From the NCBI GenBank assembly GCA_025935275.1, contig JAICVP010000001.1, forward strand, positions 1 through 34,530: a DNA stretch of 34,530 nt, read 5' to 3'. Below the pieces are notes generated by a model. It ran no database searches. It was not told the DNA's origin and was given only the letters and a program-made list of their open reading frames with translations. This DNA is from Thermoleophilia bacterium (lineage in GTDB: Bacteria; Actinomycetota; Thermoleophilia; Gaiellales; Gaiellaceae). The translations under genes were made by a program, and so were the position numbers. Below, in pieces: positions 3,484 through 34,244 of this stretch; position 1 is the stretch's first letter, and the number at the start of each line of letters is the position of its first letter.

Positions 3484-5996
3484 AGGCGGTCGTGATGGCG
3501 GGCGGCGAGGGCACGCGCCTGCGCCCGCTCACCTCGAACCAGCCCAAGCCGATGGTTCCCATCGTCGGCAAGCCGTGCATGGAGCACATCGTCGAGCTCC
3601 TCAAGCACCACGGCTTCGACGACATCGTCGTCACCCTCGCATTCATGCCGCAGGCGATTCGCGGCTACTTCGGCGCGGGGGAGAGCCACGGCGTTTCGAT
3701 CCGGTACTCCGTGGAGGAGTCTCCGATGGGCACCGCGGGCTCGGTGAAGCTCGCCGAGGACGCACTCGACGAGCCCTTCCTCGTCATCTCGGGTGACGCG
3801 CTCTGCGACATCGACCTCGGTGCGCTCGTGCGGTTTCACCAGGAAAAGGAAGCCATGGTGACCATCGGCCTGAAGAGCGTCGACAATCCGCTCGAGTTCG
3901 GGATCGTCGTGACCGACGATGACGGGCGCATCGAGCGGTTCCTGGAGAAGCCCTCCTGGGGCCAGGTCTTCACGGACACGATCAACACGGGCATCTACGT
4001 GCTCGACCCGGAGGTGCTCCGTCACGTGCCCGAGGGCGAGCCGTATGACTTCTCGAAGGAGCTCTTCCCGCTCCTCCTCGAGATGGGCCGCCCCCTCTAC
4101 GGCTACGTCGCGGACGGCTACTGGCAGGACATCGGGAACCTCGACCAGTTCCGCCAGGCGAACTTCGACGCTCTCGACGAGCGGGTGGCGCTGAACGTCG
4201 CCGGCATCAAGCTGCGCGGCAACGTCTGGGTCGGCGAGGGGGTCGAGCTGGCCGACCTCGAATCCGTCGAAGGCCCCGCGTTCATCGGCAACTACTGCCG
4301 CATCGCGCCGCAGGCGTCCGTCGGCCCGTACTCCGTGCTCTCGCCGAGCGTGACGCTGCGTGAGCATGCGCGCACGACGCGGTCGGTCGTGGACTCGTCC
4401 ACGTACATCGGCCGGAGCGCGCTCGTGGAGGGTGCGATCGCAGGCAAGTCCTGCGACATCAGGCCGCACGCCCGGCTGCACGAGGGGGTGGCGGTGGGGG
4501 ACAGCTGCACGATCGGCGAGCAGAGCGTCGTCATGCCTGGAATCCGCATCTATCCGTTCAAAGAGGTCGAAGCGGGCGCGCTCGTCGACCGGAACCTGAT
4601 CTGGGAGTCGCGCCTGGCCTCGAGGCTCTTCGGCCGCGACGCGGTCGCCGGCCTCGTGAACGTCGACCTGACGCCCGAGACCGCGCTGCGGGTCGGGATC
4701 GCGCTCGGCACGGCCCTGAAGCGCGGCGTCCGCGTGGTGACGAGCCGAGACGGCTCTCCCGCGAGCCGGCTCCTCAAGCGAGCGGTCGTCTCCGGCATCA
4801 CCTCCACGGGCGTCCAGGTCGCCGACCTCCACGTCATGCCGGCCGCCGTCAACCGCCACTTCCTGAAGAGCGAGGGCCTCGGCGCGGGCGTCCACGTTCG
4901 TCCGAGCACAGTCGATCCCGAGATCATGCAGATCCAATTCTTCGAGCCGCCGGGCATCCAGGCGACGCCCGAGTTCCTCAAGGAGATCGAGAAGCACTTC
5001 CAGCGCCAGGAGTTCCGGCGCGCCGCGTACGACGAGGTGGGCCAGATCTACACGCCGACACGGGCCGCCGAGACCTACGCGGACGACCTCCTGGGGACGC
5101 TCGACGTCGAGGCCATCAGGGCGCGCACCTTCAGGATCGTGGTCGACTATGCCCACTCGGCGGCCTCGATCGTGCTTCCGGTCGTGCTCGGCCCGCTCGG
5201 TGTCGAGATGATCGCCGCGCATCCGTACGGCGGGGAGCAGACCGCGGACTCGGCGGACGGGGTGCGAGAGGCGCTCGGCCATGCAAAGCGCCTCGTTGCG
5301 GCGGTCGGAGCCGACTTCGGCGTCGTGTTCGACCGCTCCGGCGAACGGATCTACCTCGTCGACGAGCAGGCGCATGAAGTCCCGGTCGAGCAGGAGCTGC
5401 TCCTTTTCCTCAGCCTCCTCGCCTCCGACGGCAAGAGCGGGACACTCGCGCTTCCGATCACGGTCACGAGCCTCGCGGAGCCGCTCGTCAAAGGCTCGAA
5501 GCTCGAGGTCACGCGAACGGCCGCCTCCCTCTCGGCGCTCACGCGCGCGTCCGCCGGTGACGGCGTCGTCTTCGCGGGGTCCATCGGCGGCGGCTTCGTC
5601 TTCCCCGAGTTCTTGCCCGCTTACGACGGCGTCGCCAGCCTCTGCAACCTGCTGCAGCTGCTCGCGCCCGTCGACCGTCCACTCTCGGAGCTTGTTTCCG
5701 GCCTGCCGCAGTCCACCGTCATCCATCGCCAGGTGCGCTGCCCGTGGGCCCGCAAGGGCGCTGTCATGCGCATCCTCACGGAACGCGTGAAGGGGAAGAA
5801 GGTGGACACCCTCGACGGGATCAAGGTCTACGAGGACGGCGGGTGGGCACAGGTGCTTCCCGACCCCGACGAGCCGCTCGTCCACGTGTACGCCGAAGGG
5901 AAGACACCGGAGGACGCGGCGACCCTCGAAGAGCGCTTCCTCAAGCTCGTCGAGGACATCGTCGCGGGCACCGATGAAGAGGACGGGGTGGCATAA
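3480..5996 (+). CDS. Sugar-1-phosphate nucleotidyltransferase (mannose-1-P guanylyltransferase-like) + hexapeptide beta-helix + phosphohexomutase-like C-terminal half
   Basis: The N-terminus [28 protein letters not shown] is the NTP-transferase G-loop. The middle part shows a left-handed beta-helix repeat pattern. The C-terminal ~460 aa is arranged like PGM/PMM, but the four catalytic motifs look degenerate (see findings). Confidence 0.85.
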
Positions 5997-24106: not shown

Positions 24107-26854
24107 TCAGGCGGTGGCGATGAGCTTCGAGGGCGGCTCGGCCTCGCCGGGCTCCTCGGTTTGGAGCAGGCGCTCGAGCGCCGAGACGCAGCGCGGGCAG
24201 AACTGGCTTCCCGATCCACGCCTGAGCTCGTCGAGAGCCTCGTCGGCGGGCCGGGCGGCGCGATAGATGCGCGTCGTGAGCATCGAGTCGAGCGCGTCGG
24301 CGACGTGAATGATGCGGGCGCCGAGCGGGATCTCCTCGCCCGAGATGCCGTCGGGATAGCCGGTGCCGTCGAAGCGCTCGTGGTGGTGGCGGATCGCAGG
24401 CACCGCGTCCTGCAGGAAGCCGAGGCGGTCGATGATGCGCGCGCCCTCGTCCGCGTGGCGCTGCATCAGGGCCCACTCGTCGGGCGTGAGGCTCGCCGGC
24501 TTCAGGAGGATGGCGTCCGGAATCGCGAGCTTGCCGATGTCGTGGAAGAGCGCCGCGTGTCCGAGGAGGTCGAGCTCGGCCTGCGAGAGACCCAGCTCCC
24601 GGCCGATGGCGAGGGCGAGCTGCTGGACGCGGCGCGAATGGCCGGCCGTGTAGGCATCCCGCGCGTCGACGGTTGCAGAGAGGCTCTCCATCGCCGCGGT
24701 CGAGCGCTCCTTCAGCAGCCGGTTCGCCTGCTCGAGGGAAACGTTCTGCTGGCGGATGGTCTCGGCGGCGCTGCGCAGCTTCTTCGTCGACTTCTCCGTG
24801 TGGCCGAGGTAGGCGGCCATCGTCTTGCGCATCAGGAAGAGCGGCAGGACGAAGACCGCGAGGCCGTAGAGGCCGATGGCGGAGTAGGCGAGCGCGATCG
24901 CCCCGCCGACCGCACCGAAGGCCACGTAGTGCGGCAAGAGCCACGAGAAGCGCTCGTTCCAGACACTCCTCCACTTGTCGTGCCCTTCCAGCGCCATCGC
25001 GCCCGAGAGGAGCCCCGTGTTGACCACGAAGTACGCGCCGCCGGCGACGAGGCCGGCCGCTGCGATGACGAGCTCGCCCGTGCGGGTCTCGCTGGAGCCG
25101 ATGCTGAACACGGCCGCCGCTGCGAGTGAGGCGAGGCTGAGCGCGCCGATGTTGAAGCAGACGTAGTACCAGGCATCGCGGCGTGAGCTCCACTCGACCG
25201 CGACGGTGGCCACGGCGAGCGGCAGCGCCGCTCTCGGGCCGAAGAGCGCTGCGCCGGCGAGGGCGCCGACGGCGCTGACCGAGATCGAGCCCGCTTCCAT
25301 CTCGAGGGAGAGCGCCTGCCCGCCGCCGACGAGGATGATGATCGCGATCAACCCGATCAGGTTGTCGTTCGTCCCGAGGAAGGCTCCCGCGATGCCGGCG
25401 CCGATCCCCGCGATGGAGACGAGGGCGACCAGCGAAGCCACGGGCGGCGACAGTGCGAGGAAGTGCGGACGGCCGGGCGAGTGCGGTCGCGGCTGCTGCT
25501 GCTCGCGGCGCTCGCTTGCTCGCTGCTTGGGGAGCGCACGCGAGACGACGGAGGCGTACTCCCCGTCCTCCGGCACGGCGGCGAGGCGCGCGGGCCGCTC
25601 GGAGGGCGAGAGGAGCAAAGGCTCGGAACTTGCGCCCTGGACGCGGTTCCGCCCCTGGAGCTTCGCGCGGTAGACGGCCAGGTCGGCCTGGTGGATGAGC
25701 TCGTTCGGGTCCGCCCCGTCCTTGGGGAAGCCCGCGACGCCGAGCGAGACCGTGGCGCGGATCGGCTCGCTCGAGGTCTCGACCTCGAAGCGGCGGTCGG
25801 CAACCGCCCGCCGGATGCGCTCGGCGATCTCGAGCGCTTGCTCCGGCGGGGTCTCCGGCAGCAGGATGGCGAACTCCTCGCCACCGAACCGTGCGGGCAC
25901 GTCGTAGTGGCGAAGCTGCTTGCGGAAGACCTCTGCAATGCCCTTGAGGACTGCGTCGCCGGCGAGGTGGCCGTACGAGTTGTTGATGTCCCTGAGGAGG
26001 TCGAGGTCGGCCATGATGATCGACATCGGCCGGTCCATCCGGCTCGCCCGGACGAGCTCCTCACGCAGCTCCCCCGCGAAGTAGCGGGCGTTGAAGAGCC
26101 CGGTCTTCGGATCGACGCGCGCCTCCTCCTGGAGGGCCGGGACGCTCAGCGAGCGGTGGATCAGGAGGAGCGGGGCGACTGCGGTGGGAAGCAGCCAGGG
26201 ATTCCACGTCCAGATGGCCGCGAAGGCGACGCCCAGCGCCGCAAGGACGAAGTCGGTCGAGAGGCTCTCTGCGGAGAAGAGCCCGGTCTCACGAAGCGTG
26301 TGCCCGCGCGCGAAGTGGAGCATGGTCGCGAGCAGGACGTGGTTCAGGGTGACGAAGACGACGGAAGCAGCGAGCCCGGCCAGCGCGAAGGTCACGTCCG
26401 GGTTCAGGTCCCAGCTTTCCACCAGGGTGACCGCCCCCCACGCCGCCAGCCCGTTCAGCGTGTAGTTGGCGATGTTGAAGCCCTGGATGTACCAGGGGTA
26501 GCGCACCTTCAGCCATTCCGGGATGTGCTGCACGACGCCCATGAGGGCGACGAGCTCCGGCGGGAGCAGCATCGCGGCCGGAATGAGGAAGACGATGGTC
26601 GTGTGGTAGCTCTGGTCGCGGGGCGTCCGCACGACGAAGAGCTGTGCGACGGCCGCGCAGGAGGCGAGCACGAGGAACGTCGGCCAGCCGTGCGTTCCGG
26701 GCTTCAGGTGCGAAAGCGGAACCAGAGCCGCGGCGACGGCGATTGCGGCGATCGTGAAGAGGTAGGCCTTGGCCTGGCGCGAGAGCGATTCCTCGGGCGG
26801 CTCGGGCCCGCTGCGGCGCTCGGTGGCGCCAAACTCGCTCGAAACTGCGCTCAT
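24107..26854 (-). CDS. Polytopic membrane hybrid: TM module - GGDEF diguanylate cyclase - second TM module - HD-GYP phosphodiesterase
   Basis: RHYDVPARFGGEEFAILLPET carries the I-site RxxD and an intact GGEEF. The HD-GYP part is HSRRVQQLA...LFHDIGKLAIP...HHERFDGTGYPDG. Two hydrophobic blocks of ~200 aa each. Confidence 0.9.
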   Translation of the reverse strand: MSAVSSEFGATERRSGPEPPEESLSRQAKAYLFTIAAIAVAAALVPLSHLKPGTHGWPTFLVLASCAAVAQLFVVRTPRDQSYHTTIVFLIPAAMLLPPELVALMGVVQHIPEWLKVRYPWYIQGFNIANYTLNGLAAWGAVTLVESWDLNPDVTFALAGLAASVVFVTLNHVLLATMLHFARGHTLRETGLFSAESLSTDFVLAALGVAFAAIWTWNPWLLPTAVAPLLLIHRSLSVPALQEEARVDPKTGLFNARYFAGELREELVRASRMDRPMSIIMADLDLLRDINNSYGHLAGDAVLKGIAEVFRKQLRHYDVPARFGGEEFAILLPETPPEQALEIAERIRRAVADRRFEVETSSEPIRATVSLGVAGFPKDGADPNELIHQADLAVYRAKLQGRNRVQGASSEPLLLSPSERPARLAAVPEDGEYASVVSRALPKQRASERREQQQPRPHSPGRPHFLALSPPVASLVALVSIAGIGAGIAGAFLGTNDNLIGLIAIIILVGGGQALSLEMEAGSISVSAVGALAGAALFGPRAALPLAVATVAVEWSSRRDAWYYVCFNIGALSLASLAAAAVFSIGSSETRTGELVIAAAGLVAGGAYFVVNTGLLSGAMALEGHDKWRSVWNERFSWLLPHYVAFGAVGGAIALAYSAIGLYGLAVFVLPLFLMRKTMAAYLGHTEKSTKKLRSAAETIRQQNVSLEQANRLLKERSTAAMESLSATVDARDAYTAGHSRRVQQLALAIGRELGLSQAELDLLGHAALFHDIGKLAIPDAILLKPASLTPDEWALMQRHADEGARIIDRLGFLQDAVPAIRHHHERFDGTGYPDGISGEEIPLGARIIHVADALDSMLTTRIYRAARPADEALDELRRGSGSQFCPRCVSALERLLQTEEPGEAEPPSKLIATA

Positions 26855-27052
26855 CTATGTCACTCCAGGGGACGCCATACGCCGTTGGACGCTCCGTTCC
26901 ACGCATGCGCGCGGGGCCGCAGAGCCATAACTGCAAGGTACGACCTGCAGAAAGGGGGAGCGTCCCCCGTTCGAGGGACGCCCTGACTAGGTTAGAAAGT
27001 TCCCCCGAAAGGGTGAGCCCGGCGGTTCAGGGCTCTGCTCAGCGCCCGAGGA

Positions 27053-28858
27053 TCACGGGAGCGGCAGAGCGGTCGTGTCGAGCCCGAGGTCGGCTGCGAA
27101 CTGTGCGAGCTCGGCGTCGCTCAGATACTCGCCATCCTCGGACGGCGCCTCGACCTCGGCGTTGTCCGACCAGGAGGCCGAAGCCCACGAGGCGCTCGCC
27201 CACGAGGCGGCCGACTGGGAGTCGCTCGCCCAGGAGGCCGAAGCCCACGAGGCGGAGGCCCACGACGCGCTCGCCCAGCTGGCGGAGTTCCAGGACGCGG
27301 AGGCCCAGGAGGCGTCCGACCACGAGGCGCTCGCCCAGGACGCGTTTGCCGAGGCCGTGCTGGCCCAGCTCGCGGCGTCGAAGACCTTGCCGCCGCTGAT
27401 GTCCGTCCCGATGAACCGGTTCAGCGCCGCGTTCGGGTTCGGAGCGCTCGAGAGCGCCACCGCCTTGGCGACGTCCACGATCCCGACGCCCTGCGAGAGG
27501 GGTGCGGCATTCGGCGTCCTGCTCGCGGTCAGCATGAGCGCGCCCTTGACCTGGTCGGGCGTCCACGTGGGATGCGCCGAGAGGATCTGGGCAGCCGCGC
27601 CAGCCACCACGGGGGCGGCGAAGGACGTGCCGGAGAGCTGGATGTAGCCGGGGGCGACGACGCTCGTCGGCTTCTCGGTAACGAGGGTCGAGGCGGTCGG
27701 CACCGGGCCGACCATGTAGCGGCCGGGAGCGCCGATATCCGGCTTCGCGAAGCCGTCCAGCGTGTAGCCGTAGGCCGACCAGGGTGCCGCCAGGTCGTCG
27801 CTCGTCGACACGGAGCCGTCGATGTCATCCGCGCCGACCGTGATCACGAAAGGATCGTTGCCCGGGGCGAACGGAACGCCGCTCGGCCTGCCGTCGACAC
27901 CGTAGTTGCCGGCGGCGACCACCACGACGACGCCCGAGAACCAGAGTCGCTCGACCGCCTGATCCAGCGGGTCGTACATGAAGCTGTTCGCCTGCGATGA
28001 GTGGAGCGAGAAGTTCGCGACGCGGATCCCGTACTTGTCCTTGTTCGCGAGGATCCAGTCGGCGGCCGCGATGACGTCGCGCGTCATCGCCATGCCCTGA
28101 TCGTCCATGACATCGATCGAGACGAGCTTGGAAGCGGGCGCAGCGCCGGCATAGCCGTCGCCGGAGCCCGCTGCGATACCGGCCACGAAGGTGCCGTGGC
28201 CGCGGCCGTCGCCGGCTGAGTTGCCCGTCAGCGAGGTCATGTTCGCCTGAGCGACGACGCGGCCGCCGAAATCGGGGCGCGAAGCGTCGATGCCCGAGTC
28301 GACGACGGCGATCGTCGGCGTCGCCGCAGCCGTTCCGTTCGCCCAGAACTTCTGGACGCCGGAGACGAACGGCCAGCGCTGCTTGTTCGAGAGGCCGCCG
28401 GCGAGTTGGACGGGAGCGTCGGTGGTGATCGCGGCGATGCCCGGCTTCGAGACCAGGTGGACGATCTGCGCGCCGGTGAGGTTCGCTGCGACGCCGTTCA
28501 CCGAGGTGAACTGCCGCTTGATGCCCTTCGCAGCACCGCGCTCGCCGCTCTTGAGCTCGTTCTTGACGACCGAGGCGATCGCGGCGGTCGACTTGTCGGG
28601 GTTGCCCTGGATGATGACGTTGAATGTCTGCGACGGGCTCGCCTTCGCGGACGAGAGGAGCCCCGGCGTCGTGTAGGCGTAGCGCGAGGCGGCGCCTGCG
28701 GCCGACGAGGCCGTCAGCGCCAGCGCAACGACGACAAACGAGACGAAGCCGCGTCCACCCTTCCCCCAGAGCGCGCTCGAGCGCGTCTCGCCCTTTGCGG
28801 GCTTACCCCAGAGGGCACTCTTCCGAAGATCTCCGTGGGTACCACGATCGAGCCGCAT
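27053..28858 (-). CDS. Secreted subtilisin-like serine protease (S8), paralogue 1, with xxASW pentapeptide tail and acidic C-terminal extension
   Basis: Triad motifs IAVVDSGID, GHGTFVAGIAAG and SGTSFAAPVVAGAAAQ. Signal anchor FVSFVVVALALTASSAAGAA. Start at MRLDRG (28858). Confidence 0.9.
   Translation of the reverse strand: MRLDRGTHGDLRKSALWGKPAKGETRSSALWGKGGRGFVSFVVVALALTASSAAGAASRYAYTTPGLLSSAKASPSQTFNVIIQGNPDKSTAAIASVVKNELKSGERGAAKGIKRQFTSVNGVAANLTGAQIVHLVSKPGIAAITTDAPVQLAGGLSNKQRWPFVSGVQKFWANGTAAATPTIAVVDSGIDASRPDFGGRVVAQANMTSLTGNSAGDGRGHGTFVAGIAAGSGDGYAGAAPASKLVSIDVMDDQGMAMTRDVIAAADWILANKDKYGIRVANFSLHSSQANSFMYDPLDQAVERLWFSGVVVVVAAGNYGVDGRPSGVPFAPGNDPFVITVGADDIDGSVSTSDDLAAPWSAYGYTLDGFAKPDIGAPGRYMVGPVPTASTLVTEKPTSVVAPGYIQLSGTSFAAPVVAGAAAQILSAHPTWTPDQVKGALMLTASRTPNAAPLSQGVGIVDVAKAVALSSAPNPNAALNRFIGTDISGGKVFDAASWASTASANASWASASWSDASWASASWNSASWASASWASASWASASWASDSQSAASWASASWASASWSDNAEVEAPSEDGEYLSDAELAQFAADLGLDTTALPLP
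27164..27382 (-). repeat. In-frame 15-nt tandem repeats encoding (xxASW)n, 12 Trp
   Basis: Translation: FDAASWASTASANASWASASWSDASWASASWNSASWASASWASASWASASW...ASWSD. The DNA units contain CCAGG/CCTGG dyads. Confidence 0.85.
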
Positions 28859-28954
28859 TAGATCTTGTCCCTCTCCCTTTCCCTCCCCCACCAAGGCCGC
28901 AGGCCCGGGTGAGGTTTGCAACGCCAGGTCGCAAGCTAGGGCCTCGCAAAGAGA

Positions 28955-28984
28955 GGAGCCTCCCCCTTTTGTGGGAGAGGCTCC
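28955..28984 (-). terminator. Intrinsic terminator after protease 2
   Basis: Minus strand reads GGAGCCTCTCCC-ACAAAA-GGGGGAGGCTCC (12 bp including one G-U), followed by TCTCTTTGCG. It is near-identical to the hairpin at 30903-30932. Confidence 0.6.
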
Positions 28985-29035
28985 GAATTTCCCTCGTTTG
29001 GGGGATCAGCGCCCCCCGGGGGCGCATGCCCCGTT

Positions 29036-30814
29036 CTAGGAGGCCCAGGCGGCCGCTGCCCAGCTGGCGGCGTTCCAGCTCGCCGCGGCCCACGAGGCGG
29101 CTGCCCACGAGGCGCTGTTCCAGGAGGCCGAGGCCCAGCTCGCCTGGTTCCAGGAAGCACTCGCCCAGGAGGCCTGGTTCCAGGAGGCACTCGCCCAGGA
29201 GGCCTGGTTCCAGGAAGCCTGGTTCCACGACGCCTGGTTCCAGGAAGCGTCCGCGGTGGCCGCGTTCGACCAGCTGGCCGAGTCGAAGGCCGGGGCCCCG
29301 GTGGAGTCCGGCGTGACGTACTGGTTCAGGCCCGCATTCGGGTTCGGAGGCGTGCCGCCGGCCAGGGTGCTGTAGTCGAATCCGTACGCGCCCTTGACGT
29401 TCAGCTCGCCGACGCCGAGCCCCATGCCTGAGGCCGTCGCGCGCGCGGTCAGCATGAGAGCGCCCTTGACCTGGTCCGGCGTCCAGTTCGGATACTTGGC
29501 GAGGAGCTGTGCAGCCGCTCCCGAGACGATCGGAGCCGCGAACGACGTGCCCGACATCCACATGTAGCCGCTCGCGGTCACGCGCTCGGGATGCTCGAGA
29601 GGCATCGTCGCCGTGGCCTGCACCGGGCCGATGAGCGTGCGCCCGGGGGCGCCGATGTCCGGCTTCGCGAAGCCGTCCAGCGTGTAGCCGAAGGCCGACC
29701 AGGGAGCCGCGAAGTCGTCACCGCGGTTCGTGGGGGTGCCGTTCAGGTCGGCCGCGCCGACGGTGATCACGAAGGGATCGTTGCCGGGCGCGTAGGCGAC
29801 CGTCGTCGGGAGTCCGTCGACGCCGTAGGTCCCTGCAGCGACGACCACGACCACACCGTTGAACCAGAGCTTCTCGACCGCCTTGTTGAGCGGGTCGTAC
29901 ATGAAGCTGCCGGAGACCGTCGACTGCAGCGAGAAGTTCGCGACGCGGATGTTGTAACGAGCCTTGTTCGCGAGGATCCAGTCCGCCGCGGCGATCACGT
30001 CGCTCGTGATCGCCATGCCGTTGTCGTCCATGACGTCGATCGAGACGATCGGAGCCGTGGGGGCGGTGCCGGCATAGCCGTCGCGCGAGCCGGCAGCGAG
30101 GCCCGCCACGAGCGTTCCGTGGCCGCGGCCGTCGCCGCTCGAGTTCGGCAGCAGGCTCGTCATGGTCACCTTGGCGACCACGCGCGTGTTGCAGCCGACC
30201 CCGGTGTCTCCGAAGTCCGCGCGGCAGGACTGGACGCCCGAGTCGACCACTGCGATCGCCGGGGTTTTCAGGTTCGGATTCCAGACGTCGGCCGCGCTCA
30301 CAGCGCTGACCCAGTTCTGGTTGCTGGAGAAACCGTTGTTGTAGACGGACAGGCGAATCTTCGAGTCAGGGGTGATCGAGAGGATCCCCGTCCGGCCCGC
30401 GAGCTCGACGATCTGGGCGCCCGTCAGCTGGGCAGCCACGCCGTTGACGCTGGAAAACGTCCGCGTGAGGCCCTTGGCCTTCCCGGGCTTCGCCGCCGTC
30501 GAGTCGACGACCGTGTTCGCCACCGCGGAGCTCTTCGTGCCGCGCTTGCCCTGGACGATGACGGAGAAAAGCTGATTGGGGTGTGCCTGGGCGTCCGCCA
30601 TGAGGCTCGCGGGGACGATCGCGCTCTTGCCCTGAACCGAACGGTCGCCTGCCGTCGCCGCGACGGGAGCCGCCAGAGCGACGACGAGCGCCATTGCCAC
30701 GAAGCCTCGTCCGGGCTTGCCCCACAGGGCGCTCGAGCGAGTCGAGCCCTTCGCGGGCTTGCCCCAGAGGGCGCTCTGCCGAGTGTCTCCGTTTCTACCG
30801 CGTTCCAGCCGCAT
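29036..30814 (-). CDS. Secreted S8 subtilase, paralogue 2, ending inside the xxASW repeat
   Basis: IAVVDSGVQ, GHGTLVAGLAAG and SGTSFAAPIVSGAAAQ. Start at MRLERG (30814). Confidence 0.9.
   Translation of the reverse strand: MRLERGRNGDTRQSALWGKPAKGSTRSSALWGKPGRGFVAMALVVALAAPVAATAGDRSVQGKSAIVPASLMADAQAHPNQLFSVIVQGKRGTKSSAVANTVVDSTAAKPGKAKGLTRTFSSVNGVAAQLTGAQIVELAGRTGILSITPDSKIRLSVYNNGFSSNQNWVSAVSAADVWNPNLKTPAIAVVDSGVQSCRADFGDTGVGCNTRVVAKVTMTSLLPNSSGDGRGHGTLVAGLAAGSRDGYAGTAPTAPIVSIDVMDDNGMAITSDVIAAADWILANKARYNIRVANFSLQSTVSGSFMYDPLNKAVEKLWFNGVVVVVAAGTYGVDGLPTTVAYAPGNDPFVITVGAADLNGTPTNRGDDFAAPWSAFGYTLDGFAKPDIGAPGRTLIGPVQATATMPLEHPERVTASGYMWMSGTSFAAPIVSGAAAQLLAKYPNWTPDQVKGALMLTARATASGMGLGVGELNVKGAYGFDYSTLAGGTPPNPNAGLNQYVTPDSTGAPAFDSASWSNAATADASWNQASWNQASWNQASWASASWNQASWASASWNQASWASASWNSASWAAASWAAASWNAASWAAAAWAS
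29039..29287 (-). repeat. In-frame 15-nt tandem repeats encoding (xxASW)n, 15 Trp
   Basis: Translation: FDSASWSNAATADASWNQASWNQASWNQASWASASWNQASWASASWNQASWASASWNSASWAAASWAAASWNAASWAAAAWAS followed by the stop. Confidence 0.85.
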
Positions 30815-30902
30815 TCGAGTACTTCCCTTTCCTCTCTCACCTGAAGGCCGCAGGGCCGAGTGAGGTAGACGCCAGACCGGACGGTACGACCGAAAGACGA
30901 AA

Positions 30903-30932
30903 GGAGCCTCCCCCTTTTGCGGGAGAGGCTCC
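30903..30932 (-). terminator. Intrinsic terminator after protease 3
   Basis: Minus strand reads GGAGCCTCTCCC-GCAAAA-GGGGGAGGCTCC followed by TTTCGTCTTTCGG. Confidence 0.6.
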
Positions 30933-30977
30933 GAATTCACTCGATTGAGGGGTCAGCGACCTAGCATGCCGGCCCGC

Positions 30978-32720
30978 CTACGCTGCCCAGGACGCGGCTG
31001 CCCAGCTCGCCGCATTCCAGCTCGCGGCGGCCCAGGAAGCAGTTGCCCACGAGGCGTTGTTCCAGGAGGCCGAAGACCAGCTGGCGTTCGCCCAGGAAGC
31101 AGCAGCCCAGGAGGCCTGATTCCAGGAGGCGTTCGCCCAGGAAGCCTGGTTCCAGGAAGCCTGGTTCCAGGACGCCTGGTTCCAGGAGGCGTTTGCCGTT
31201 GCGTTGTTCGCCCAGCTCGCCGAGTCGAAGGTCACGCCACCGGTTCCGTCGGAGCCGACGAACTGGTTCAGCGCGAGGTTCGGGTTCGGCGGGTTCGTGA
31301 CGTCGAACGCGCCCTTGGCGTTGACTTCGCCGACGCCGAGCCCCATGCCGGCGGCCGTCGGGCGGGCGCTCAGCATGAGCGCGCCCTTGACCTTGTCCGG
31401 GGTCCAGGTCGGGTTCTTGGCCAGGATCAGGGCCGCGGCGCCGGAGACGACCGGGGCCGAGAACGACGTCCCGGACATCCACATGTACCCGGGGGCCGTG
31501 ACACGGTTCGGTGCCTCGAGCGCCATCGTCGACAGCGACGGAACCGGGCCGATGAGCTGGCGGCCGGGAGCGCCGATGTCGGGCTTCGAGAAGCCGTCGA
31601 GCGTGTAGCCGAAGGCCGACCACGGAGCCACGGTGTCGTCAGCCGACGTGTAGCCCGTGCCGTTGGTGTCGCTCGCGCCGACGGTGATCACGAAGGGATC
31701 GTTGCCGGGCGCATAGGCGACCGTCGTCGGCAGGCCGTCGACTCCGTAGTTGCCGGCTGCAGCGACCACGACCACGCCGTTGAACCAGAGCTTCTCGACC
31801 GCCTTGTTGAGCGGGTCGTACATGAAGCTCCCGGCCAGCGTCGACTGCAGCGAGAAGTTGGCGACCTTGATGTTGTAGGTGCGCTTGTTCGCCAGGATCC
31901 AGTCGGCAGCCGCGATGACGTCGCTCGTGAGCGCCATGCCGTTGTCGTCCATGACGTCGATCGAGACGATCGGAGCCGTGGGCGCCACGCCGGCATAGCC
32001 GCTCTTGGAGCCCGCGGCGATGCCCGCCACGAAGGTGCCATGACCGCGGCCGTCGCCGGTCGAGTTCGGGAGCAGGCCCGTCATCGTCACCGACTTGATG
32101 ACACGGCCGCCGAAGTCGAGGCGGCCCGCCTGCACGCCGCTGTCGACCACCGCGATCGCGGGGACGTTCAGCGGAGAGAGTGCCTGCCCGACGTAGAAGT
32201 CGGAGACGCCGGCCGAGTCGACCCAGGTCTGGTCGTTCGAGTACTGGGCCGACAGGCGGATCCGCGAGTCGAGCGTGATCGCGAGGATCCCCGGCCGCTT
32301 GGCCAGGTCGAGGATCTGAGCCCCGGTCAGCTGAGCGGAGGTGCCGTTCACGCTCGTGAACACCTTCTTGACGCCCTTCGCCTTGCCGGGCTTTGCGCTC
32401 AGTGAATTGTTCACCGACTGCGCGACCGTGGAGCTCTTCGTCCCACGGCTGCCCTGCACGATGACGCTGAAGACCTGGTTCGGGTGCGCCTGGGCCTCCG
32501 CGAGGAGGCTCGCCGGAACGAGAGCGCGCGCGGCCTGAACCGAACGACCGGAGCTGCCTGCGGTTGCAGCGACCGGAGCGGCCAGGGCGGCGACAAGCGC
32601 CAGAATCACAAAACCACGTCCGGGCTTGCCCCAGAGCGCGCTCGAACGAGACTCGCCCTTGGGCTTACCCCAAAGCGCACTGCCTCGCAAAGTCCCCCTT
32701 GTGCCGCTGCCTTGCCGCAT
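30978..32720 (-). CDS. Secreted S8 subtilase, paralogue 3, ending inside the xxASW repeat
   Basis: IAVVDSGVQ, GHGTFVAGIAAG and SGTSFSAPVVSGAAAL. Start at MRQGSG (32720), with GGAGGAAGGAA upstream. The longer track ORF (to 33566) is antisense to murT. Confidence 0.9.
   Translation of the reverse strand: MRQGSGTRGTLRGSALWGKPKGESRSSALWGKPGRGFVILALVAALAAPVAATAGSSGRSVQAARALVPASLLAEAQAHPNQVFSVIVQGSRGTKSSTVAQSVNNSLSAKPGKAKGVKKVFTSVNGTSAQLTGAQILDLAKRPGILAITLDSRIRLSAQYSNDQTWVDSAGVSDFYVGQALSPLNVPAIAVVDSGVQAGRLDFGGRVIKSVTMTGLLPNSTGDGRGHGTFVAGIAAGSKSGYAGVAPTAPIVSIDVMDDNGMALTSDVIAAADWILANKRTYNIKVANFSLQSTLAGSFMYDPLNKAVEKLWFNGVVVVAAAGNYGVDGLPTTVAYAPGNDPFVITVGASDTNGTGYTSADDTVAPWSAFGYTLDGFSKPDIGAPGRQLIGPVPSLSTMALEAPNRVTAPGYMWMSGTSFSAPVVSGAAALILAKNPTWTPDKVKGALMLSARPTAAGMGLGVGEVNAKGAFDVTNPPNPNLALNQFVGSDGTGGVTFDSASWANNATANASWNQASWNQASWNQASWANASWNQASWAAASWANASWSSASWNNASWATASWAAASWNAASWAAASWAA
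30981..31229 (-). repeat. In-frame 15-nt tandem repeats encoding (xxASW)n, 15 Trp
   Basis: Translation: FDSASWANNATANASWNQASWNQASWNQASWANASWNQASWAAASWANASWSSASWNNASWATASWAAASWNAASWAAASWAA followed by the stop. Confidence 0.85.
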
Positions 32721-32863
32721 GTTGGTCGTTCCTTCCTCCGCGCAACGCCGCGCGGGCCGCAGTTGGAATTCAGTCCGATGATCGGCGCCCGAGGGCCGTT
32801 CACCCCACCTCGTTCGAGGGAAAGCGGCGAACTTCACTCGTTCGAGTGACCGAAGAGCGCCCG

Positions 32864-32869
32864 TAGACT
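32864..32869 (+). promoter_or_regulatory. -10 hexamer placed for a leaderless murT transcript
   Basis: TAGACT (a TANNNT match), then 7 nt to GTG 32877. No Shine-Dalgarno sequence in between. Confidence 0.35.
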
Positions 32870-32876
32870 GGCTCCC

Positions 32877-34244
32877 GTGCGGCTCCGAGTCGAAATCGCC
32901 CTCGCGCGGGCAGCGGGAAGTCTCTCGCGGCTCGCCGGGAGAGGCGGCGGCACCACGATTCCCGGGAAGATCCTCGCCACGGTGGATCCCGCCGCCCTGG
33001 GGACGCTCGCGGGACGGCTCCCGCTCGGATCCGCGATCGTCTCGGCCACCAACGGTAAGACGACGACCGCCGCGATGGTCGCCGAGATCGTGGGAGACCG
33101 CGTCAAGCTTGCACACAACCGCGCGGGCGCGAACCTCGTCTCGGGGGTGGCCTCGGCCCTGCTCTACTCGGACGGGGCCGAGCTCGGGCTCTTCGAGGTC
33201 GACGAAGGCGCATTCCCGGACATCGCGGGCCGCATCAGGCCGCAGGCGGTCTGCCTCGGCAACCTCTTTCGCGACCAGCTCGACCGCTACGGCGAGCTGG
33301 AGCACATCGCCGAGCGCTGGCGCACGGCGGTCGCGGATCTCGACCCCGCGGCCTGGACGGTCGTGAATGCCGACGACCCCCTTCTGACCGACATCGCACG
33401 CGGGCGCACAGAGGCCCTCCGGTTCGGGATCGACGACCCTTCCGTGGCGCGGGAACGCCTTTCCCACGCTGCCGACTCGAAGTACTGCCGAACGTGCGGC
33501 GCGCCGTACGACTACGCGGCCTCGTACGTGGGTCATCTCGGCGACTACCGCTGCCCGAACTGCCACGAGGCGAGGCCCCCGCTCGACGTCGCCGCGAAGG
33601 CGATCGCGCTCGCAGGCCTCGAGAGCTCGTCCTTCGACCTCGTCACGCCAGAGGGGACCCGCCGGGTCTCCGTCCCGCTTCCGGGGCTCTACAACGTCTA
33701 CAACGCGCTCGCCGCAGCTTCGCTCAGCCTCGTCCTCGGCGCGGGCCTCGACGACATAGAGGCCGGGCTGGGGCGGTTTCGGGCGGCCTTCGGCCGGTTC
33801 GAGCGCATCACGGCAGGCGACCGCACCGTCCTCCTGCTCCTGATCAAGAATCCCGCGGGTGCGAACGAGGTCGTGCGGACGCTGGTCGACGCGGGTGCTC
33901 CCGGACGGCTGCTGATCGCGCTGAACGACGACATCGCGGACGGGCGCGATGTCTCCTGGATCTGGGACGTCGATTTCGAGCCGCTCATCGGGTCGCTGCA
34001 GGAGCTCGTCGCGACCGGCGCCCGCGCCCAGGAGCTGGCTCTCCGCTTCAAGTACGGCGGCCTCGACCCGGCCAGGATCACGCTCCTCCCGGATCTCTCG
34101 GAAGCCCTGTCCTACGGAGTCGAGAGCACGCCCGCCGGCGGCGAGCTCGTCGTTCTCCCGACCTATACCGCCATGCTCGCCCTGCGCGAGATTGCGTCCG
34201 ACCAGGGCCTGGTGCGTCCCTACTGGGAGGAAGCCGTCGCGTGA
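32877..34244 (+). CDS. murT: Lipid II isoglutaminyl synthase, Mur-ligase-like subunit MurT
   Basis: P-loop VSATNGKTTTAAMV. Cys4 ribbon CRTCGAPYDY...YRCPNCH. A DUF1727-like C-terminus. Followed by gatD with a GTGA overlap. Confidence 0.9.
   Translation: MRLRVEIALARAAGSLSRLAGRGGGTTIPGKILATVDPAALGTLAGRLPLGSAIVSATNGKTTTAAMVAEIVGDRVKLAHNRAGANLVSGVASALLYSDGAELGLFEVDEGAFPDIAGRIRPQAVCLGNLFRDQLDRYGELEHIAERWRTAVADLDPAAWTVVNADDPLLTDIARGRTEALRFGIDDPSVARERLSHAADSKYCRTCGAPYDYAASYVGHLGDYRCPNCHEARPPLDVAAKAIALAGLESSSFDLVTPEGTRRVSVPLPGLYNVYNALAAASLSLVLGAGLDDIEAGLGRFRAAFGRFERITAGDRTVLLLLIKNPAGANEVVRTLVDAGAPGRLLIALNDDIADGRDVSWIWDVDFEPLIGSLQELVATGARAQELALRFKYGGLDPARITLLPDLSEALSYGVESTPAGGELVVLPTYTAMLALREIASDQGLVRPYWEEAVA

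Follow-up and report, generated by a model that had tools for sequence, protein, structure and literature searches.

The three neighbouring genes for S8 serine proteases (subtilases) in a 34,530-nucleotide stretch of the genome of a soil-dwelling Thermoleophilia bacterium of the family Gaiellaceae (assembly GCA_025935275.1, contig JAICVP010000001.1; hereafter the window) raise the question of what the motif-bearing segments at both ends of their products are for. Each product begins with a very basic segment carrying two SALWGK motifs, and behind its protease domain lies a tail with a tryptophan at every fifth residue. The comparison reported here revealed that the enzyme class is ordinary; the end modules, their clade restriction, their variation in copy number and the link between an N-terminal and a C-terminal form of the ALWGK unit are not in Pfam, NCBIfam or the searchable literature, in which the string ALWGK returned haemoglobin beta-chain peptides only and the tail strings returned nothing. 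Judging from the sequences, we tentatively prefer to read the proteins as Sec-exported, envelope-associated pre-pro-subtilases, in which the SALWGK segment may extend the n-region of the signal peptide and the tail may act as a disordered sticker. Nothing so far suggests a new principle.

The proteases and their end modules

The paralogues were named P1, P2 and P3 by position, P3 being the copy that adjoins murT and P2 the middle one (Table 1). Open reading frames (ORFs) and Pfam matches bore out a preliminary description of the same DNA, which had placed three same-strand S8 genes at the coordinates given in the table; all three lie on the minus strand, and each starts with ATG behind a purine-rich Shine–Dalgarno sequence. 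At the protein level P2 and P3 are 76% identical, and P1, already described as the more diverged paralogue, is 60% identical to P2 and 62% to P3. The closeness noted for P2 and P3 at the DNA level amounts to an overall identity of 76.7%, although the pair of segments quoted as an example (29761-29830 and 31681-31750) was off by one base.

Pfam Peptidase_S8 (PF00082) matched all three proteins with E values of 1e-40 to 1e-45 (139–155 bits; cut-off 21.8). Aligned to subtilisin BPN', the motifs DSG, HGT and GTSF stand in the subtilisin order at residues 187/221/410 in P1, 191/232/422 in P2 and 193/227/417 in P3, so that the intact D/H/S triad reported before holds for each, and also for P2 though it has Thr329 at the oxyanion position (AAGTYG, against AAGNYG in P1 and P3). 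A search with P2 as query returned 6731 homologues at E ≤ 1e-5, of which the best 120 (63–99% identical) were examined; Asn stands at the oxyanion position in 120 of these 120, including P0001, which is 99% identical to P2. The Thr329 codon ACC is one base from AAC; this strain may have a true mutation that attenuates the enzyme, or an error may have arisen in sequencing or assembly.

All three proteins have a marginal Inhibitor_I9 (PF05922) propeptide (21.4–22.7 bits; cut-off 21.2) behind the signal sequence and ahead of the S8 domain; it was missing from the earlier list of parts. The parts on that list are real, but their number is five (n-region motif, h-region, I9, S8 and tail) rather than three or four, and six in P1. 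The nearest solved structure is that of Tk-SP (3afg; E 1e-31), followed by subtilisin BPN'. In NCBIfam, only generic S8 matches below threshold were found, the best of them to the mycosin model TIGR03921 at 100–135 bits. A mycosin of type VII secretion was rejected because the equivalog cut-off of this model is 278.75, no C-terminal hydrophobic helix is present and the neighbours (murT-gatD and a GGDEF-HD-GYP gene) are not those of an ESX locus; matches to the IteS anti-phage, PatA/PatG, CspBA and similar families are far below their NCBIfam cut-offs. The S8-associated polymorphic toxin system (S8-PTS) has an S8 gene beside a BetaH-toxin gene and an immunity gene (PMC9424270), and was rejected since such neighbours are absent from the window and from the relatives L121-L123. 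Type I secretion (T1SS/RTX) was considered and dropped on sequence or context.

The N-terminal 37–38 residues of P1, P2 and P3 have a net charge of about +8 and contain two SALWGK motifs each, starting at residues 14 and 28 in P1 and P2 and at 14 and 27 in P3. The duplication of this motif, noticed earlier, was confirmed: a degenerate DNA pattern for the doublet has three matches in the window and none in 100 shuffles. Across 15 genes from the window and related metagenome-assembled genomes (MAGs), the residues R-x-S-A-L-W-G-K are fixed while third codon positions vary (GCC/GCG/GCT/GCA, CTC/CTG/CTT and GGC/GGG/GGT/GGA), which means that the constraint acts on the peptide and rules out that it acts on the RNA of this coding region. 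The residues S-A-L-W-G-K are also invariant in an alignment of 55 sequences. The N-motif is translated and under purifying selection. Its family-wide form is R-[SGA]-[SN]-A-L-W-G-[KRTSG] in one to three copies, followed by G-G-R-G and a hydrophobic core. Searched on its own with hidden Markov models (HMMs), this part is covered by neither Pfam nor NCBIfam: the N-terminal 64 residues matched no Pfam family at E ≤ 10, and NCBIfam covers nothing in residues 1–60.

In the window proteins the motif is followed by G-R-G-F and then by 15–18 hydrophobic residues that include Pro and end in A-x-A-G, as in VAMALVVALAAPVAATAG; a hydrophobic run followed by A-x-A occurs in 117 of 147 representatives of the sequence clusters described below. 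The preliminary description had called this segment a signal anchor, a label that we revise, as a hydrophobic stretch of this length with Pro and a conserved A-x-A(G) resembles a cleavable Sec signal peptide. Because Pro and the conserved A-x-A after a short h-region form the pattern of signal peptidase I substrates, the SALWGK doublet looks like part of an unusually long n-region. A twin-arginine translocation (Tat) signal was rejected, the boundary between n- and h-region being G-R-G-F in the window proteins and most homologues and R-R only in a minority. A class III (prepilin-like) signal was rejected as well: the hydrophobic residues do come after R-G-F, but position +5 lacks Glu and a conserved A-x-A follows the h-region. 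Two types of N-terminus, MRLDR.. and MRQVS.., are swapped among close homologues.

Annotation hides the N-motif through wrong start calls. Public gene calls often start late, at a Met or Leu inside the signal peptide, so that the motif is lost, and others start early, through the high-GC antisense of murT; mis-started members of the family include P0001, P0065, P0105, P0152, P0165 and P0214. An 862-residue minus-strand ORF at 30978-33566 of the window is an artefact of the latter kind, an over-early start of P3.

At the other end, the S8 domain is followed by a linker of about 45 residues (..PPNPN..FD[SA]ASW) and then by the tail. The earlier reading of Trp at every fifth residue is confirmed by 12 Trp in P1 and 15 each in P2 and P3, almost all of them spaced by exactly five residues and embedded in Ala, Ser, Asn and Gln. 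Two residues follow the last Trp in P2 and P3 (...ASWAAAAWAS and ...ASWAAASWAA, respectively). The acidic module that ends P1 is conserved in P1-type orthologues (ADNAEGE...GE[YFW][LI]..AEL..LG), and in several MAGs the sole S8 gene at the locus is of this P1 type. Sorting by LPXTG, PEP-CTERM or GlyGly-CTERM signals was rejected because P2 and P3 end in the Trp repeat and P1 in the acidic segment. Pfam and NCBIfam leave the last ~90 residues uncovered when the C-terminal part is searched separately; the only Pfam matches of the tails at E ≤ 10 were to Pentapeptide_4 (E 0.18 and 0.67; 10–12.3 bits, cut-off 38). A word-index protein search with the tail alone gave two matches, both to S8 fragments, the tail probably being too low-complexity for this index.

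That both ends are lineage-specific low-complexity drift without function is very improbable. Neither end belongs to a database domain, and at the DNA level the tail consists of degenerate tandem repeats of 15 bp (15/30-bp periods, 63–87% matches), as such drift would have it. However, S-A-L-W-G and nearly every tail Trp are invariant at 60–99% identity and persist at 45%, with synonymous codon changes. Trp, the rarest residue, is kept even as the spacers and the unit length drift across lineages (period 5, 4, and 6 or 12). Nearly every tail Trp forms an invariant or near-invariant column of the 55-sequence alignment. Both end modules are under protein-level selection and are retained by thousands of homologues.

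The regular spacing also raises the possibility of a folded tail, in the form of a Trp-centred variant of the right-handed quadrilateral beta-helix of pentapeptide-repeat proteins, with [STAV][DNS]W-x-x in place of A(D/N)LXX, which could serve as a rigid binding or spacer domain. Most lineages have a period of exactly five; SNWVS, ANWTA and TDWYA are examples of units that fit [STAV][DN][centre]xx apart from the W, and two tails gave the marginal Pentapeptide_4 matches. These matches reach only 10–12 bits against a gathering cut-off of 38, however, and tails of period 4 (SAWG) or 6/12 (TALWGK) at the same position cannot adopt that fold. The cores of pentapeptide-repeat proteins consist of Leu or Phe, and an all-Trp core is sterically unlike the known members. 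Prediction of the tail structure with AlphaFold2 (AF2) gave no beta-helix, at low confidence. Full-length P2, modelled from the 55-sequence alignment, has a mean pLDDT of 50.8, with residues 1–62 and 496–592 below 35 and the tail, left unstructured, at 23–34; the tail alone appears as one long helix of pLDDT 52–80, a low-confidence result that is typical of Ala-rich low complexity and is not counted as evidence. The weak AF2 results and the variable repeat period would be compatible with disorder and argue against a conserved fold such as the pentapeptide beta-helix, which we regard as quite unlikely.

Occurrence on other S8 proteases and possible roles

Both SALWGK units and 12–16 tail Trp were found in 113 of the best 120 homologues, and both elements are kept in MAGs in which the S8 proteins are only 45–48% identical. 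The two flanking regions match no described family in Pfam or NCBIfam, and orthologous proteases in relatives keep both elements, in line with the preliminary description, which had taken the combination for an unfamiliar one. Named homologues are mostly labelled 'serine protease AprX' (JGI, an automated label) or 'S8 family serine peptidase [Gaiellaceae bacterium]' (NCBI).

Searching 1.84 billion representatives with a profile of the N-region yielded 225 clusters at 50% identity. In 95 of the cluster representatives the sequence extends at least 50 residues past the signal sequence, and 73 of these match an HMM of the propeptide/S8 region; most of the other 22 are frameshifted (Arg-rich out-of-frame text) or too short, and the start of the propeptide is visible in several of the short ones. 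All complete N-motif proteins examined have a Trp tail, but the reverse fails, as Trp tails without the N-motif occur. A metagenome DNA scan for (xxASW)n returned many unrelated 15-bp microsatellites, and all of the ~45 long ORFs with such a C-terminal tail have S8 motifs. Their tail units include WSGAS, WGSAS, WSDAS, WADAS, WHGAS and WNSAS; most full-length metagenome examples carry the N-motif, in one to three copies, and the WSGAS, WGSAS and WHGAS types lack it. Tail units of other relatives are SNWxx, TDWYx, DVSWx and, with a period of four, SAWG. In these searches both elements occurred almost only on S8 proteases.

The only candidate found for a carrier other than an S8 protease, P0172, comes from a contig of 1232 bp (L124) and resembles a right-handed beta-helix protein with the same N-motif and signal peptide and possibly the start of a Trp repeat. 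It was rejected because the 3' part of the contig is an unrelated gene in another frame, which makes the contig probably chimeric.

A DNA scan of 185,579 species genomes for the doublet ALWGK...ALWG[KR] gave mostly chance matches, and only in-frame matches in ORFs of at least 200 residues were used. Among the in-frame matches listed, one group consists of N-termini of S8 proteases in Gaiellaceae, Gaiellales and 'Actinomycetes' MAGs. The other consists of C-termini of S8 proteases in Acidobacteriaceae and Terracidiphilus MAGs (L036, L040, L052, L098, L106 and L115) and one Armatimonadaceae MAG (L043); their tails contain three to seven [ST]ALWGK units, and the acidobacterial ones mostly end in an aromatic residue (..PLEY, ..VFFAY). 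The proteins of this second group that were tested match Pfam S8, with no Pfam or NCBIfam annotation of the tail. One acidobacterial protein shares 33% identity with P2 across the part that aligns, which takes in the catalytic region and the tail (E 2e-34). The proteins of the group have a Trp-containing repeat tail where P2 has its own, and their ALWGK unit is identical to that of the Gaiellales N-motif; they differ in having an ordinary short signal peptide without the N-motif and a tail that includes Lys and Gly and has a period of 6 or 12. Trp-repeat tails at this position are therefore an old feature of this S8 subgroup, with a fast-evolving unit.

Six matches in Solirubrobacterales MAGs (L017, L031, L047, L054, L073 and L077) were rejected as N-motif carriers. 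These chance pattern matches fall in an unrelated, conserved non-coding element of ~70 nt with GTGGG(G) boxes, which reads AAGTGGGGnAAAATGTGCAAnnnGGGTTGCGyTGTGGGGGAAAGTGGG and then GGAGnGGCTCCTCCCACCTCTCCACC and has no Rfam match. At five of the six loci the gene downstream of it has a product that starts V-A-F-R-G-T-F-D-H-T-L-D-[AV]-K-N and is MraZ-like, and the element is probably the operator or promoter region of mraZ.

According to the composite reading that we tentatively prefer, the hydrophobic segment would be cleaved after A-x-A during Sec export. The R-x-[SN]-A-L-W-G-[KR] units, in one to three copies, would form a family-specific, very basic extended n-region that is kept on the cytoplasmic side and acts before or during export, on timing or targeting, by analogy with the ESPR, YSIRK and KxYKxGKxW motifs. 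After export the I9 propeptide would fold and then release the catalytic domain, and the Trp tail would serve as a disordered aromatic 'sticker', through which the mature enzyme would adhere non-covalently either to its substrate or to the envelope, at the membrane interface or on a wall polymer. The summed Wimley–White interfacial energy is favourable for the Gaiellales tails at -9 to -13 kcal/mol.

Several observations weigh against this reading. The Wimley–White sum is not favourable for the N-motif and for the acidobacterial TALWGK tail, which leaves weak support for interface binding, limited to the Gaiellales tails. The AF2 alignment was shallow and the core itself was poorly predicted, so that low confidence at the ends is weak evidence of disorder. 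SALWGK is confined to a single protease family, and a role specific to the protease would account for this no less well than targeting would; the n-region motifs YSIRK and ESPR occur on many different passengers. The gene order around the array, conserved as described below, may reflect shared ancestry alone. Finally, ALWGK stands at an exported C-terminus in Acidobacteriota and at a presumably cytoplasmic N-terminus in Gaiellales.

This occurrence on opposite ends in two phyla, which a division into targeting motif and sticker leaves unexplained, is the main reason why we keep a protease-centred alternative. The A-[SL]-W units, namely ASW of the tail and ALW of SALWGK and TALWGK, would then be recognition or cleavage sites for the enzyme's own active site, with Trp at subsite P1 and a small residue at subsite P3. 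The tail would be an inhibitor or C-terminal pro-region, trimmed off piece by piece as the enzyme becomes active, perhaps with the release of small Trp peptides. Both kinds of motif occur essentially only on S8 proteases of this clade, and ALWGK, at either protein end, always accompanies this type of S8 domain, which suggests a tie to it. Subtilisins prefer a large hydrophobic residue at subsite P1 and small ones at subsites P2 and P3 (as in the substrate AAPF), a preference that fits A-x-W units, and in P1-type proteins the tail is a linker before a further module. We nevertheless consider this alternative unlikely: as part of a Sec signal n-region, a motif is left in the cytoplasm, out of reach of an exported active site, and a cleavage site needs neither a strict five-residue period nor the 12–16 copies seen in close homologues.

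Equally doubtful is a broader proposal in which the Trp units (ALWGK, ASWxx, SAWG, TDWYx and others) represent one class of mobile linear motif that co-evolves with the S8 domain in at least three phyla and at either end. If true, such units would act via the protease, be it as pseudo-substrate or auto-inhibitor, as a docking code for a chaperone or export factor before translocation, or as the precursor of a Trp peptide, and the class would represent a new zymogen or sorting control and not a simple anchor. That the Gaiellales N-motif and the acidobacterial C-terminal repeat are linked offers a concrete, testable handle on how such motifs act.

Under the preferred composite reading, the modules are candidates for two new elements, an n-region motif of signal peptides for monoderm Actinomycetota and a tail that serves non-covalent retention or regulation. 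The Gaiellales-like Actinomycetota rank with the most abundant bacteria of soil and with those least often cultured. The homologues come mostly from metagenomes and Gaiellaceae MAGs, and the family has thousands of members in public metagenomes; defining both modules would improve the annotation of a large slice of soil exoproteomes.

The locus, the origin of the array and its non-coding sequence

The array had been placed between the cell-wall genes murT-gatD and a gene for a cyclic di-GMP enzyme, and this position was borne out by MurT and the start of GatD on one side and a protein with GGDEF and HD-GYP domains on the other. The order murT-gatD / S8 / GGDEF-HD-GYP is found elsewhere with one S8 gene (L123) or with two, a P3-type followed by a P1-type gene (L121 and L122), and it is kept in the MAGs L013, L048 and L049, in which MurT is 65–75% and the S8 protein only 45–48% identical. 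A P3-type orthologue is present at the locus in the closest relatives. P3 shares 82–86% identity with the first S8 gene in L121 and in L123, and P1 shares 86% with the second S8 gene of L121. Since relatives have one or two genes at the same place, the three genes of the window represent an expansion, by tandem duplication, of a locus that is itself conserved. The constant presence of one copy beside murT-gatD and the c-di-GMP gene across Gaiellales-like genomes argues for a housekeeping envelope protease over an accessory scavenging enzyme.

The duplication of whole transcription units proposed earlier is at best partly borne out: P2 is a mosaic of a P1-like head and a P3-like body. Sliding-window identity revealed that the spacer upstream of P2 and the first ~60–90 nt of the gene are P1-like (71–80%, against 42–66% to P3) and that the remainder, including the 3' hairpin, is P3-like. 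The regions compared were 30700-30977 with 28745-29035 and 32610-32876, and the breakpoint lies in or next to the SALWGK-coding stretch. This pattern points to one unequal crossover between the SALWGK-coding stretches of P1 and P3 as the probable source of P2; a single event of this kind would give the order P3 - spacer - (P1 head/P3 body) - spacer - P1 and would also account for the duplicated hairpin and leader. P2-type orthologues that are 89% identical to P2 exist on other contigs, which indicates that the crossover was not recent.

The near-identical 12-bp hairpins described for the two spacers were recovered, with stems of 12 bp and a difference in one loop base. This GGAGCCTCTCCC-loop-GGGGGAGGCTCC hairpin and the CCCTAGCKT...TCTGGCGT block that follows it are also located, in L048, upstream of the single S8 gene (about 4280-4400), in a spacer shared with the divergent murT, where no co-directional gene ends. 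The presence of the hairpin without a preceding S8 gene marks it as part of the ancestral 5' flank of the S8 unit, and not simply the terminator of the gene before it. It may act as a terminator, an insulator or an operator, so that ending the transcript of the paralogue before it may be only one of its roles or none of them.

The upstream intergenic regions of P1 and P2 align, including the shared 5' leader noticed before, and P3 keeps CTGCGGCC. Copies of this box lie 32-44 nt upstream of the three S8 starts and 61-68 nt upstream of the GGDEF gene start. As an 8-mer, CTGCGGCC is not significantly enriched in the window (9 observed, 4.6 expected), and it could be a shared regulatory site of four consecutive minus-strand genes.

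These boxes also bear on the idea of an uncleaved signal anchor, in which SALWGK would be a cytoplasmic tail that tethers the complex of propeptide and enzyme to the membrane and takes cytoplasmic input, for example from the adjacent GGDEF-HD-GYP protein, to control release. A leader box ahead of all four genes would suit such a partnership, as would the adjacency of the S8 and GGDEF-HD-GYP genes, which is kept over wide divergence; the n-region charge of about +8 favours an N-in topology, and one to three motif copies suggest avidity for a partner. On the other hand, the Pro...A-x-A(G) pattern after a short h-region is typical of signal peptidase I substrates, hairpin terminators lie between the S8 and GGDEF genes, and the box alone lacks significant enrichment. 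An uncleaved anchor is therefore improbable in our view, and the cleavable signal peptide of the composite reading is preferred.

P3-type leaders of seven genomes have CTGCGGCC followed by an inverted repeat with nearly invariant arms and a loop of 4–8 nt; among these seven genomes the arms show no compensatory changes and thus no covariation. A known riboswitch or leader was rejected, as an Rfam search of the window matched no family. The repeats with the core CTCGAACGAG in the spacer between murT and P3 are conserved in relatives, and a similar hairpin with a TCGAAC loop follows P1; this 10-mer occurs four times in the window against 0.7 expected.

Table 1. Coordinates of the genes, protein parts and non-coding elements of the S8 protease locus in the window
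Feature	Position	Strand	Details
P3	30978-32720	minus	580 aa; ORF and translation; Pfam S8 E 2e-42, plus I9
P2	29036-30814	minus	592 aa; P1-like 5' end and P3-like body by sliding-window identity
P1	27053-28858	minus	601 aa; diverged type with extra acidic C-terminal module
P3 basic n-region	32610-32720	minus	aa 1-37; SALWGK at 32664-32681 and 32625-32642
P2 basic n-region	30701-30814	minus	aa 1-38; SALWGK at 30758-30775 and 30716-30733
P1 basic n-region	28745-28858	minus	aa 1-38; SALWGK at 28802-28819 and 28760-28777
P2 hydrophobic core and predicted signal-peptidase site	30647-30700	minus	VAMALVVALAAPVAATAG; from sequence
Hydrophobic core, P3	32556-32609	minus	equivalent of P2 core
Hydrophobic core, P1	28685-28744	minus	equivalent of P2 core
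P2 Inhibitor_I9-like propeptide	30350-30538	minus	aa 93-155; Pfam PF05922
I9-like propeptide, P3	32253-32435	minus	equivalent of P2 propeptide
I9-like propeptide, P1	28403-28600	minus	equivalent of P2 propeptide
P2 Peptidase_S8	29435-30265	minus	aa 184-460; Pfam; aligned to Tk-SP 3afg and subtilisin BPN'
Peptidase_S8, P3	31362-32159	minus	Pfam
Peptidase_S8, P1	27482-28318	minus	Pfam
P2 codon 329, ACC (Thr)	29828-29830	minus	aligns with oxyanion-hole Asn155 of subtilisin BPN'
P2 tail	29045-29287	minus	aa 510-590; FDSASW and 14 further Trp; 13/14 gaps exactly five residues
P3 tail	30987-31229	minus	aa 498-578; 15 Trp
P1 tail	27170-27382	minus	aa 493-563; 12 Trp
P1-type acidic C-terminal module	27056-27169	minus	38 aa (SDNAEVEAPSEDGEYLSDAELAQFAADLGL...); after Trp tail; no Pfam match
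GC-rich hairpin and T-rich run, P3-P2 spacer	30903-30932	minus	12-bp stem
Same hairpin, P2-P1 spacer	28955-28984	minus	12-bp stem; homologues upstream of S8 genes in L121, L005 and L048
Hairpin GGGCGTCCC-TCGAAC-GGGGGACGCTCC and T-containing run	26957-26983	minus	downstream of P1; conserved in L121 and L123
CTGCGGCC boxes	32755-32762, 30846-30853, 28895-28902, 26915-26922	minus	ahead of P3, P2, P1 and the GGDEF-HD-GYP gene, respectively
Inverted repeat CCGCGC-loop-GCGCGG, P3 leader	32738-32755	minus	abuts Shine–Dalgarno GGAGG
Two small hairpins or inverted repeats with core CTCGAACGAG (TCACTCGAACGAGTGA, CCCTCGAACGAGG)	32834-32849, 32806-32821	minus	murT-P3 spacer
MurT	32877-34244		divergent from P3
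GatD start	34241 onward		partial in window; divergent from P3
MASE9-GGDEF-HD-GYP protein	24107-26854	minus	downstream of P1

Comparison with known systems

The window proteins share with the classical pre-pro-subtilisins (BPN' and E; PF00082 and PF05922) a signal sequence, an I9-type propeptide and the order of the triad; the window proteins align to BPN' over residues 186–476, and the oxyanion Asn is kept in P1 and P3. They add to this plan a SALWGK n-region of ~37 residues, a linker of ~45 residues and a Trp tail of ~80 residues, and P2 has Thr at the oxyanion position. The alignment with Tk-SP of Thermococcus kodakarensis (3afg) covers the end of the propeptide and the catalytic domain. The C-terminal part of Tk-SP is a folded beta-jelly-roll domain, in place of which the window proteins have a low-complexity Trp repeat without detectable fold. 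Aqualysin I of Thermus, a subtilase with a C-terminal pro-sequence, is similar in being a pre-pro-enzyme with a C-terminal extension that is dispensable for catalysis, a likeness drawn by description only, and its extension is not a Trp repeat. With pentapeptide-repeat proteins the tails share a five-residue period, a small residue at i-2 and often D, N or S at i-1; they differ in that the centre is always Trp and not Leu or Phe, that scores are far below threshold and that relatives have other periods.

For the N-terminal module, the closest parallels are the motif-bearing extended signal peptides of the ESPR (in autotransporters), YSIRK-G/S and KxYKxGKxW types, which likewise place an aromatic and basic motif in an elongated n-region before an ordinary hydrophobic core and cleavage site. 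The SALWGK motif has neither sequence similarity nor a Pfam match at E ≤ 10 to any of these, and it stands apart from them in being tandemly repeated one to three times and confined to one enzyme family in Gaiellales-like Actinomycetota, not shared by many surface proteins.

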